Positions 1-1,762 of a stretch of DNA of 2,827 bases are shown piece by piece. The stretch is from sequence record FN394998.1; one strand, given 5' to 3'. The translations under genes were made by a program, and so were the position numbers. The notes under the pieces were generated by a model that saw only the letters and a list, made by a program, of their open reading frames with translations, made no database searches and had not been told where the DNA came from. Position 1 is the stretch's first letter; each line of letters begins with the position of its first letter. This DNA comes from Enterobacteria phage CUS-3.

Positions 1-543
1 ATGGCACGCCCAACAAAGTATCAAGAGGCGTATGCCGAACAGGCACGCAAACTGTGCTTGCTGGGCTACACCGATGCAGAACTTGCTGATTTCTTTGAAG
101 TCAGTGAGTCAACTATTAACAAGTGGAAGCTTGATTATCCTGAGTTTTCGGAGTCCATAAAAAAGGGTAAGGCCGTCGCTGATGCAGAAGTTAGTGATCG
201 TCTTTATCAACGCGCTATGGGCTTCGTGGCTCCAGATATCGATATTCGTGTTATTGAAAACAGAATTGTCGAAACTCCGCTTGAGAAGTATTACCCGCCT
301 GATACAACCGCTGCCATTTTCTGGCTTAAGAACCGACAGAAGGATAAATGGCGCGACAAGGTTGATCACGAGCTAACAGGCAAAGACGGCGGCGCAATTC
401 AGATTGAAACATCACCGATGAGCACTCTATTCGGAAAANNNNNNNNNNNNNNNNNNNNNNNNNNNNNNNNNNNNNNNNNNNNNNNNNNNNNNNNNNNNNN
501 NNNNNNNNNNNNNNNNNNNNNNNNNNNNNNNNNNNNNNTCTGA
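1..543 (+). CDS. Phage small terminase subunit (TerS-like, HTH DNA-binding); ORF spans masked bases 439-538, stop TGA at 541-543
   Basis: ATG at 1 and 180-aa ORF in the supplied track. N-terminal 'GYTDAELADFFEVSESTINKWKLDYPEFSESIKKGKAVADAEVSDRLYQRAMGF' followed by 'KYYPPDTTAAIFWLKNRQ' matches, from memory, the conserved layout of a widespread small-terminase family in Gram-negative prophages (HTH, then PEF, then YPPDT...WLKNR). Length of about 180 aa is typical. No search was run; 100 masked bases lie inside the ORF, so the C-terminal 35 aa and the exact stop are unverified. Confidence 0.6.
   Translation: MARPTKYQEAYAEQARKLCLLGYTDAELADFFEVSESTINKWKLDYPEFSESIKKGKAVADAEVSDRLYQRAMGFVAPDIDIRVIENRIVETPLEKYYPPDTTAAIFWLKNRQKDKWRDKVDHELTGKDGGAIQIETSPMSTLFGKXXXXXXXXXXXXXXXXXXXXXXXXXXXXXXXXXX
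64..126 (+). other. Predicted helix-turn-helix DNA-binding motif within the TerS-like protein (aa 22-42, GYTDAELADFFEVSESTINKW)
   Basis: Classic HTH pattern: a Gly turn start, a short first helix (TDAELADFF), the 'VS' turn and a recognition helix (ESTINKW) with an invariant Trp. Inferred from the sequence pattern only. Confidence 0.45.
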
Positions 544-1762
544 GCCATGTGTAAAATATTATGATGGCATTCTGTATCTGACGACCAGGGGGACATTAAG
601 TACTCAACCCGGTAGTTCATTGCACAGAAGCTCTGATTTAGGTACATCATGGAATTCTCTTCGCTTCCCAAATAATGTTCATCACTCAAACCTTCCTTTT
701 GCCAAAGTTGGCGATGAGCTGATTATTTTTGGCAGTGAGCGCGCATTTGGTGAGTGGGAAGGAGGAGAACCTGATAACCGTTATGCAGGAAACTATCCAA
801 GAACATTTATGACCAGAGTTAACGTCAATGAGTGGAGTCTGGATAATGTAGAGTGGGTTAATGTTACTGATCAGATTTATCAGGGCGGAATAGTTAACTC
901 TGCGGTTGGTGTTGGTTCAGTTTGTATCAAAGACAACTGGCTGTACTACATTTTCGGTGGGGAAGACTTTCTAAACCCATGGAGCATAGGGGATAACAAC
1001 AGAAAATATCCTTATGTTCACGATGGTCACNNNNNNNNNNNNNNNNNNNNNNNNNNNNNNNNNNNNNNNNNNNNNNNNNNNNNNNNNNNNNNNNNNNNNN
1101 NNNNNNNNNNNNNNNNNNNNNNNNNNNNNNNNNNNNNNNNNNNNNNNNNNNNNNNNNNNNNNNNNNNNNNNNNNNNNNNNNNNNNNNNNNNNNNNNNNNN
1201 NNNNNNNNNNNNNNNNNNNNNNNNNNNNNNNNNNNNNNNNNNNNNNNNNNNNNNNNNNNNNNNNNNNNNNNNNNNNNNNNNNNNNNNNNNNNNNNNNNNN
1301 NNNNNNNNNNNNNNNNNNNNNAGCGGCGGTGAAACAACGTCTTCAGCAGATGGTGCAATGATAACGTTGCATGGTTCCGGAAGCAGTACTCCACGTCGCG
1401 CGGTATATAACGCACTCGAACATCTTTTTGAGAACGGAGATGTTAAACCTTATCTTGATAATGTAAATGCTCTTGGTGGTCCGGGAAACAGGTTCTCGAT
1501 AGTTTATCTTGGCTCCAATCCTGTGGTTACCAGTGACGGAACATTAAAGACAGAGCCGGTCTCTCCTGACGAAACATTGCTGGATGCCTGGGGTGACGTC
1601 AGGTATATCGCTTATAAATGGCTGAACGCTGTCGCTATAAAGGGGGAAGAAGGGGCGAGGATACATCATGGTGTAATCGCGCAGCAACTTCGTGATGTTC
1701 TTATTTCTCACGGACTCATGGAAGAAGAAAGCACAACATGCCGCTATGCCTTTCTTTGCTAT
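539..1762 (+). CDS. Endosialidase-type tailspike (endo-N-acetylneuraminidase-like), partial; true start and stop are hidden in masked regions, internal 1031-1321 masked
   Basis: My own translation of the +2 phase (codons from 539): 'SEPCVKYYDGILYLTTRGTLSTQPGSSLHRSSDLGTSWNSLRFPNNVHHSNLPFAKVGDELIIFGSERAFGEWEGGEPDNRYAGNYPRTFMTRVNVNEWSLDNVEWVNVTDQIYQGGIVNSAVGVGSVCIKDNWLYYIFGGEDFLNPWSIGDNNRKYPYVHDGH', which contains a canonical Asp-box SSDLGTSW. After the mask (from 1322): '...NRFSIVYLGSNPVVTSDGTLKTEPVSPDETLLDAWGDVRYIAYKWLNAVAIKGEEGARIHHGVIAQQLRDVLISHGLMEEE...', which resembles the C-terminal intramolecular chaperone domain of endosialidases and related tail fibres. No stop occurs in this phase from 421 to 1762. 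It is absent from the ORF track only because no in-window stop exists. Confidence 0.8.
629..652 (+). other. Asp-box (bacterial neuraminidase repeat) S-x-D-x-G-x-T-W within the tailspike beta-propeller
   Basis: Codons agc tct gat tta ggt aca tca tgg encode SSDLGTSW, an exact match to the sialidase Asp-box consensus. Confidence 0.8.
1532..1762 (+). other. C-terminal intramolecular chaperone / autoproteolytic domain (peptidase S74-like) of the tailspike, N-terminal part; predicted self-cleavage just before Ser encoded at 1532-1534
   Basis: Motif V-V-T|S-D-G-T-L-K places Ser at position i and Lys at i+5, the spacing of the Ser/Lys catalytic dyad described for endosialidase C-terminal domains. 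The downstream 'GVIAQQL' stretch is typical of this domain. The remainder of the domain lies in masked 1763-2179. Confidence 0.65.

Follow-up and report, generated by a model that had tools for sequence, protein, structure and literature searches.

Two stretches of the endosialidase tailspike gene siaK1 in a gapped typing record of prophage CUS-3

Positions 539 to 1762 of the DNA analyzed here (the window, a stretch of 2,827 nucleotides from Enterobacteria phage CUS-3, FN394998.1) are almost certainly two sequenced stretches of siaK1, the gene for the endosialidase tailspike of CUS-3, set around a gap of true length, 291 nt. The window is a multi-locus typing record in which amplicons are joined by N, and no contiguous piece of a genome. 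The seeming adjacency of terminase, tailspike and neuO, the seeming truncation and the seemingly short stalk all arise because this typing record is concatenated; in particular, siaK1 looks 'partial' owing to the way the record was deposited and not to the gene itself. Such apparent truncation, stalk shortening and gene adjacency are artefacts of the record and should not be passed on as biology. Published work already covers the siaK1 gene and its enzyme activity, the modular origin of the gene (a P22-type adaptor together with an endosialidase of K1F type) and the linkage to neuO. The main value of the analysis is the negative result; otherwise it offers little beyond correct bookkeeping.

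The composition of the record is clear from its relatives. The 2827 bases comprise four sequenced stretches (1-438, 539-1030, 1322-1762 and 2180-2827), separated by runs of 100, 291 and 417 N. A megablast search against phage records returned 17 GenBank entries (FN394218 and FN394986-FN395002 except FN394998), each exactly 2827 bases long, laid out like the window and 98.3-99.9% identical to it. These sibling entries carry the description 'Enterobacteria phage CUS-3 partial proviral terminase gene, siaK1 gene and neuO gene, genotype GT_n', and their E. coli hosts are all given as 'serovar:K1'. The annotated coding sequences are the small subunit of the terminase at 1-438, siaK1 (endosialidase) at 539-1030 plus 1322-1762 and neuO at 2180-2827. 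In FN394999, which differs from the window at two positions, the annotated bounds of the siaK1 fragments are exactly 539-1030 and 1322-1762.

The four stretches were mapped onto the complete CUS-3 prophage of E. coli RS218 (CP000711). The terS stretch (window 1-438) corresponds to 22705-22268 of the prophage at 97.7% identity, the first siaK1 piece (539-1030) to 4013-3522 at 100% DNA identity, the second (1322-1762) to 3230-2790 at 99.8% DNA identity, and neuO to 2236-1592 at 99.5%; in the last case the BLAST match covers window 2183-2827 and starts from the fourth base of the 2180-2827 piece. The three N runs stand for rather different things. The first (439-538) is a placeholder, in which 100 N take the place of about 18.25 kb of prophage. 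In CP000711, terS is located at 22265-22705 and siaK1 at 2526-5471, and this separation of about 18.25 kb rules out a real junction between terS and the tailspike gene. The second run (1031-1321, plus strand) has its true length, the corresponding stretch of CP000711 (3521-3231) likewise counting 291 nt, and hides residues 651-747 of SiaK1, i.e. the last 12 residues of the propeller and the first 85 of the stalk. The third (1763-2179, plus strand; 417 N) spans the final 87 codons of siaK1, the stop codon and the intergenic region between siaK1 and neuO. The span of 1224 nt from 539 to 1762 is conserved in the phage records and, among the matches listed, in nearly all E. coli genomes.

Frame +1 is open from 539 through both visible siaK1 pieces, which code for two parts, 487-650 and 748-894, of the 981-residue endosialidase tailspike SiaK1 of CUS-3; of its 981 codons, 311 can be read for the source strain. 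Compared to SiaK1 of RS218, the protein encoded by the first piece is identical at all 164 residues and that encoded by the second at 146 of 147, the sole change being R767G (window 1379). Fragment 1 (539..1030, plus strand; residues 487-650, equivalent to endoNF 580-743) constitutes the C-terminal part of the six-bladed catalytic beta-propeller, and its 164 residues match positions 192-355 of the 367 in the Pfam profile PF12217, End_beta_propel (E=1.6e-104). Within the second piece (1322-1762, 147 residues) the plus-strand fragment 2a (1322..1531; residues 748-817, endoNF 841-910) encodes the final 70 residues of the triple-beta-helix stalk. These residues, 1-70 of the piece, match positions 91-160 of the 160 in PF12219, End_tail_spike (E=1.2e-32), and the PDB chains 1v0e/3gvk (E=1.3e-22). 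Fragment 2b (1532..1762, plus strand; residues 818-894) encodes the N-terminal half of the intramolecular chaperone (Peptidase S74/ICA) domain. Directly after the stalk, residues 71-132 of the piece (window 1532-1717) match PF13884, Peptidase_S74, 'Chaperone of endosialidase' (E=1.4e-11), and PDB 3gw6, which contains the endoNF stalk plus the C-terminal domain, is matched too (E=1e-60).

An earlier note, made from the letters of the window, had described an endosialidase-type tailspike with an Asp-box-containing propeller segment and a C-terminal chaperone domain, a description that the matches to PF12217, PF12219 and PF13884 bear out. The alignment it had proposed, to endoNF of K1F and the CUS-3 tailspike, identifies the latter as the same gene and yields 113 of 164 residues identical to endoNF, without gaps, for the first piece. 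Its reading of the K1 capsule as the receptor is correct but was known already. The DNA is nearly identical to siaK1 of CUS-3, the siblings all come from 'serovar:K1' hosts, and the annotation of CP000711 assigns siaK1 an endo-alpha-sialidase activity with evidence code IDA (PMID 16689790). In addition, CUS-3 is among the characterized endo-N-acetylneuraminidases listed in PMC5380687.

The full SiaK1 reference shows the complete order of domains as found with Pfam. It starts with a Head_binding domain (PF09008; residues 1-113, outside the window; E=5.2e-66), and a comparison with PDB sequences matched the N-terminus to the head-binding domains of the P22 and Sf6 tailspikes, as fits a P22-like (Lederbergvirus) tailspike. 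Then follow End_N_terminal (residues 146-212), End_beta_propel (213-662, the complete model being matched) with End_beta_barrel inserted in the propeller (324-406), End_tail_spike (663-817, profile 1-160) and, from residue 818, Peptidase_S74. The full protein matches the catalytic fragments of endoNF in the PDB (1v0e, 3gvl) with E=0, the stalk and chaperone domain of endoNF (3gw6) with 1.8e-93 and endoN92 (4hiz) with E=2.4e-273. We have assumed that the remainder of siaK1 is intact in the source strain because it is intact in close relatives.

Functional residues were mapped by aligning SiaK1 of CUS-3 with the gene 17 product of K1F (DQ111067, 1064 aa). The catalytic residues of endoNF are H350, R549, E581, R596 and R647 (PMC12632334), and all five are conserved in the alignment. 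Three of the equivalents lie on the plus strand of the window: Glu488 (codon GAG, 542..544) aligns with the catalytic Glu581, Arg503 (AGG, 587..589) with Arg596 and Arg554 (CGC, 740..742) with Arg647. The equivalents of H350 and R549 are located beyond the window; the full CUS-3 reference retains them, as it does those of R812, Y821, R837 and D994. With the catalytic equivalents present, the conserved sialic-acid-binding residues are not absent from the protein. The same endoNF study flagged K585 and N699 as critical (PMC12632334); their equivalents, and those of S848 and R866, are visible in the window and all conserved. The partner of R866, D994, is masked in the window and conserved in the reference. 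The codon right after the equivalent of Arg596 (590-592) is GGG (Gly) in the window and is recorded as AGG (Arg) in one or more of the sibling genotypes.

A pattern search located two Asp-boxes in the full SiaK1, at positions that agree with those in endoNF. Of these, the second, SSDLGTSW, is encoded at 629..652 (plus strand) and has SRDIGQTW (610-617) as its endoNF counterpart. About 2% of the shuffles of piece 539-1030 also contain the loose Asp-box pattern, and therefore the weight of the assignment rests on the profile match. At the start of the chaperone domain the self-cleavage motif S-D-G-T-L-K is encoded at 1532..1549 (plus strand), where Ser818 (1532-1534) and Lys823 (1547-1549) correspond to Ser911 and Lys916 of endoNF. 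A Ser/Lys catalytic dyad with the Lys five residues after the cleavage-site Ser has been described for the ICA domains of endosialidases (PMC3742443). Of two further residues that are essential in endoNF, G956 has its equivalent kept (Gly864, window 1670), and the position of N912 is occupied by Asp in CUS-3, as it is in MYRF (D579).

Judged from the sequence, the CUS-3 stalk is as long as that of the crystallized endoNF, i.e. normal. The earlier note had put the distance from propeller piece to chaperone domain at 'about 170 codons'; the count is 167, of which 97 are masked (1031-1321) and 70 visible (1322-1531). Residues 651-817 of CUS-3 align with 744-910 of endoNF, 167 residues in each and not a single gap, and the HMMER alignment to the PDB agrees. 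Twelve of these residues end the propeller and the other 155 form the stalk, which is the full length of the PF12219 model. The note had considered that the stalk could be shortened or that the masks could hide less than the real distance. Neither suggestion holds: the former arose because a normal stalk length was misjudged and falls with the gapless alignment, whereas for the latter the 291 N represent exactly 291 nt in CP000711 (3231-3521). A short stalk and an extra hidden distance are thus both ruled out by the coordinates of CP000711 together with the alignment to endoNF. That the source strain itself would have a truly short-stalked or otherwise truncated endosialidase was prompted only by the impression that some 170 codons looks short, and we consider it next to impossible, given the real length of the N run, the 167 residues that align gaplessly, the match of PF12219 to CUS-3 663-817 at full model length and the span of 1224 nt that is identical in nearly all matching genomes among those listed. 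For CUS-3 in general a short stalk is refuted.

In the source strain siaK1 might instead be a decaying prophage gene, broken outside the sequenced amplicons, and the fragments would then no longer be part of a working tailspike. Disruption of siaK1 by IS66 and IS3 insertions in E. coli VTB96815v and the truncated copies in strains N58 and N32 make such decay conceivable, and the finding that 9 of the 14 variable siaK1 codons among 14 siblings change the amino acid is, few as these sites are, compatible with relaxed constraint. However, the two visible pieces have open frames and are close to identity with the RS218 allele, whose enzyme has been characterized, none of the mapped functional residues is damaged, most genomes among the matches listed have an intact 'phage tailspike protein' annotated, and the polymorphisms are too few for a test. 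We therefore judge decay in the source strain to be very improbable. The enzyme might also have a linkage preference unlike that of endoNF, for alpha-2,9 or mixed alpha-2,8/2,9 linkages as in phi92, the phage of E. coli K92, in which case the receptor would not be K1 polysialic acid as such. The similarity to endoN92 of phi92 (about 60% identity over 88% of the length; PDB 4hiz, E=2.4e-273) speaks for this, but endoNF is closer, sharing 438 of 672 residues in the catalytic part. Moreover, all sibling records derive from K1 strains, the prophage bears the K1-specific O-acetyltransferase neuO, and the annotation of CP000711 records a measured endo-alpha-sialidase activity, which leaves a deviating linkage preference hardly credible. 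The preferred reading is that of an ordinary siaK1 with a K1 receptor.

We take R837, S848 and Q853 of endoNF to be the residues of the stalk that bind polySia; a literature search for the endoNF stalk-binding residues R837, S848 and Q853 gave no match. The equivalent of R837 is kept in the reference and masked in the window, that of S848 is kept at window 1343, and the position of Q853 is occupied by Met in CUS-3 (window 1358-1360). The CUS-3 genotypes vary between G and R at 1379 and 1484 and between I and T at 1499. Apart from the sites at 1484 and 1499, each of which changes the amino acid, FN394999 and the window are identical. One may speculate that these substitutions in the stalk and near the chaperone domain (the Met at the Q853 position and the polymorphisms at window 1379, 1484 and 1499) tune the binding or processivity of the spike on O-acetylated polysialic acid, co-adapted with the neuO of the prophage. 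This would parallel the role of 'tuning knob' that the stalk of K1F reportedly has, and we think it quite unlikely.

Of 5426 complete E. coli genomes, 191 contain the siaK1 stretch at an identity of at least 99%. It is also present, at 99.7-99.8%, in MW722083 (vB_EcoP_ZX5), ON470605 (vB_EcoP-720R6) and MN340231 (phiv205-1), where it is labelled only 'tail fiber'; phiv205-1 has neuO too, labelled 'general stress protein'. In the chicken isolate E. coli VTB96815v (NZ_CP178648.1, 250-4302) the 5' end of siaK1 is cut off beside an IS66 transposase and the gene is also split by an insertion of the IS3 family. Strains N58 and N32 have a truncated siaK1, and in strain N61 the span is 2 nt shorter. 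Among 14 siblings, the siaK1 pieces contain 14 variable sites in 933 nt, with an amino-acid change in 9 of 14 variable codons, and the terS piece 34 variable sites in 438 nt, with 28 of 32 variable codons synonymous. The terS fragment is far more variable than siaK1 or neuO among the sibling typing records, and the polymorphism counts of siaK1 and terS are too few for any claim on selection.

The third locus of the record, neuO, encodes the polysialic acid O-acetyltransferase (2180..2827, plus strand; sibling annotation; Pfam Hexapep, E=4.2e-11) and had its 5' repeat tract removed. Its start at 2180 (ATGTCGTTTTCC) equals the natural sequence minus the whole tract of AAGACTC heptanucleotides. 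At the edited junction (window 2180-2191: ATGT joined to CGTTTTCC) the phase-variable AAGACTC (poly-psi) tract, of which the neuO of RS218 has 19 copies, was left out and not masked. This removal explains why the length of 539-2827 in genomes departs from that in the window by a multiple of 7 nt. The fragment of the gene for the small terminase subunit, terS (1..438, plus strand), matched phrog_309 (E=2.1e-68) in a search of PHROGs and no family in a search of Pfam. It shares 97-98% identity with Klebsiella phage phiKp_30 and Escherichia phage N7 in their terS regions, a similarity that suggests module exchange.

From the endoNF literature and the annotation of CP000711 we infer how the spike would work, covering trimerization, self-cleavage and depolymerization of the capsule. 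The chaperone domain would, as in endoNF, drive the trimerization of SiaK1, after which the C-terminal domain would be released by self-cleavage at Ser818 through the Ser/Lys dyad (cf. PMC3742443). The mature spike would be held on the P22-like tail by the head-binding domain. On the virion it would bind and depolymerize the K1 capsule's alpha-2,8-polysialic acid, by which the phage would reach the outer membrane; cleavage of the alpha-2,8-polysialic acid would take place in the six-bladed beta-propeller, at the equivalents of Glu581, Arg596 and Arg647. In the lysogen the neighboring phase-variable neuO would O-acetylate the same polymer. Recently, O-acetylation by neuO was found to raise survival against lytic K1 phage (PMC13001214).

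A comparison with known systems places the window next to SiaK1 of RS218 (CP000711 / ABQ88383), which is the same gene with the same flanking neuO. The differences are a single amino acid (R767G), a terS allele of 97.7% identity and the fact that the window is a gapped typing record. In endoNF of the lytic coliphage K1F (PDB 1V0E, 3GVL, 3GW6) propeller, beta-barrel, stalk and chaperone come in the same order. Over the catalytic part 438 of 672 residues are identical with a single indel of 7 residues, the stalk is of equal length, and the catalytic residues and the cleavage dyad are shared. Identity to the solved endoNF structures is about 65%. Unlike endoNF, CUS-3 has Met at Q853, Asp at N912 and a few short indels in the chaperone domain, and its module for attachment to the virion is a P22-type Head_binding domain, whereas that of K1F is T7-fibre-like. 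EndoN92 of phi92 (PDB 4HIZ) and the endosialidases of K1E, K1-5 and 63D have a GH58-type architecture in common with CUS-3, yet their virions are of myovirus or SP6-like type and use different modules for attachment; EndoN92, with about 60% identity over 88% of the CUS-3 protein, is more distant than endoNF. EndoN92 also acts on the K92 polymer. The functional analogue is formed by gp9 and the gtr genes of P22. Like CUS-3, P22 belongs to the P22-like temperate phages with a tailspike that destroys its surface-polysaccharide receptor, both carry a receptor-modifying enzyme beside the attachment site, and their head-binding domains are homologous. The catalytic modules, however, are unrelated, an endorhamnosidase beta-helix in P22 and a sialidase beta-propeller in CUS-3, and the receptor is modified by glucosylation of the O-antigen in P22, whereas it is modified by phase-variable O-acetylation of the capsule in CUS-3.
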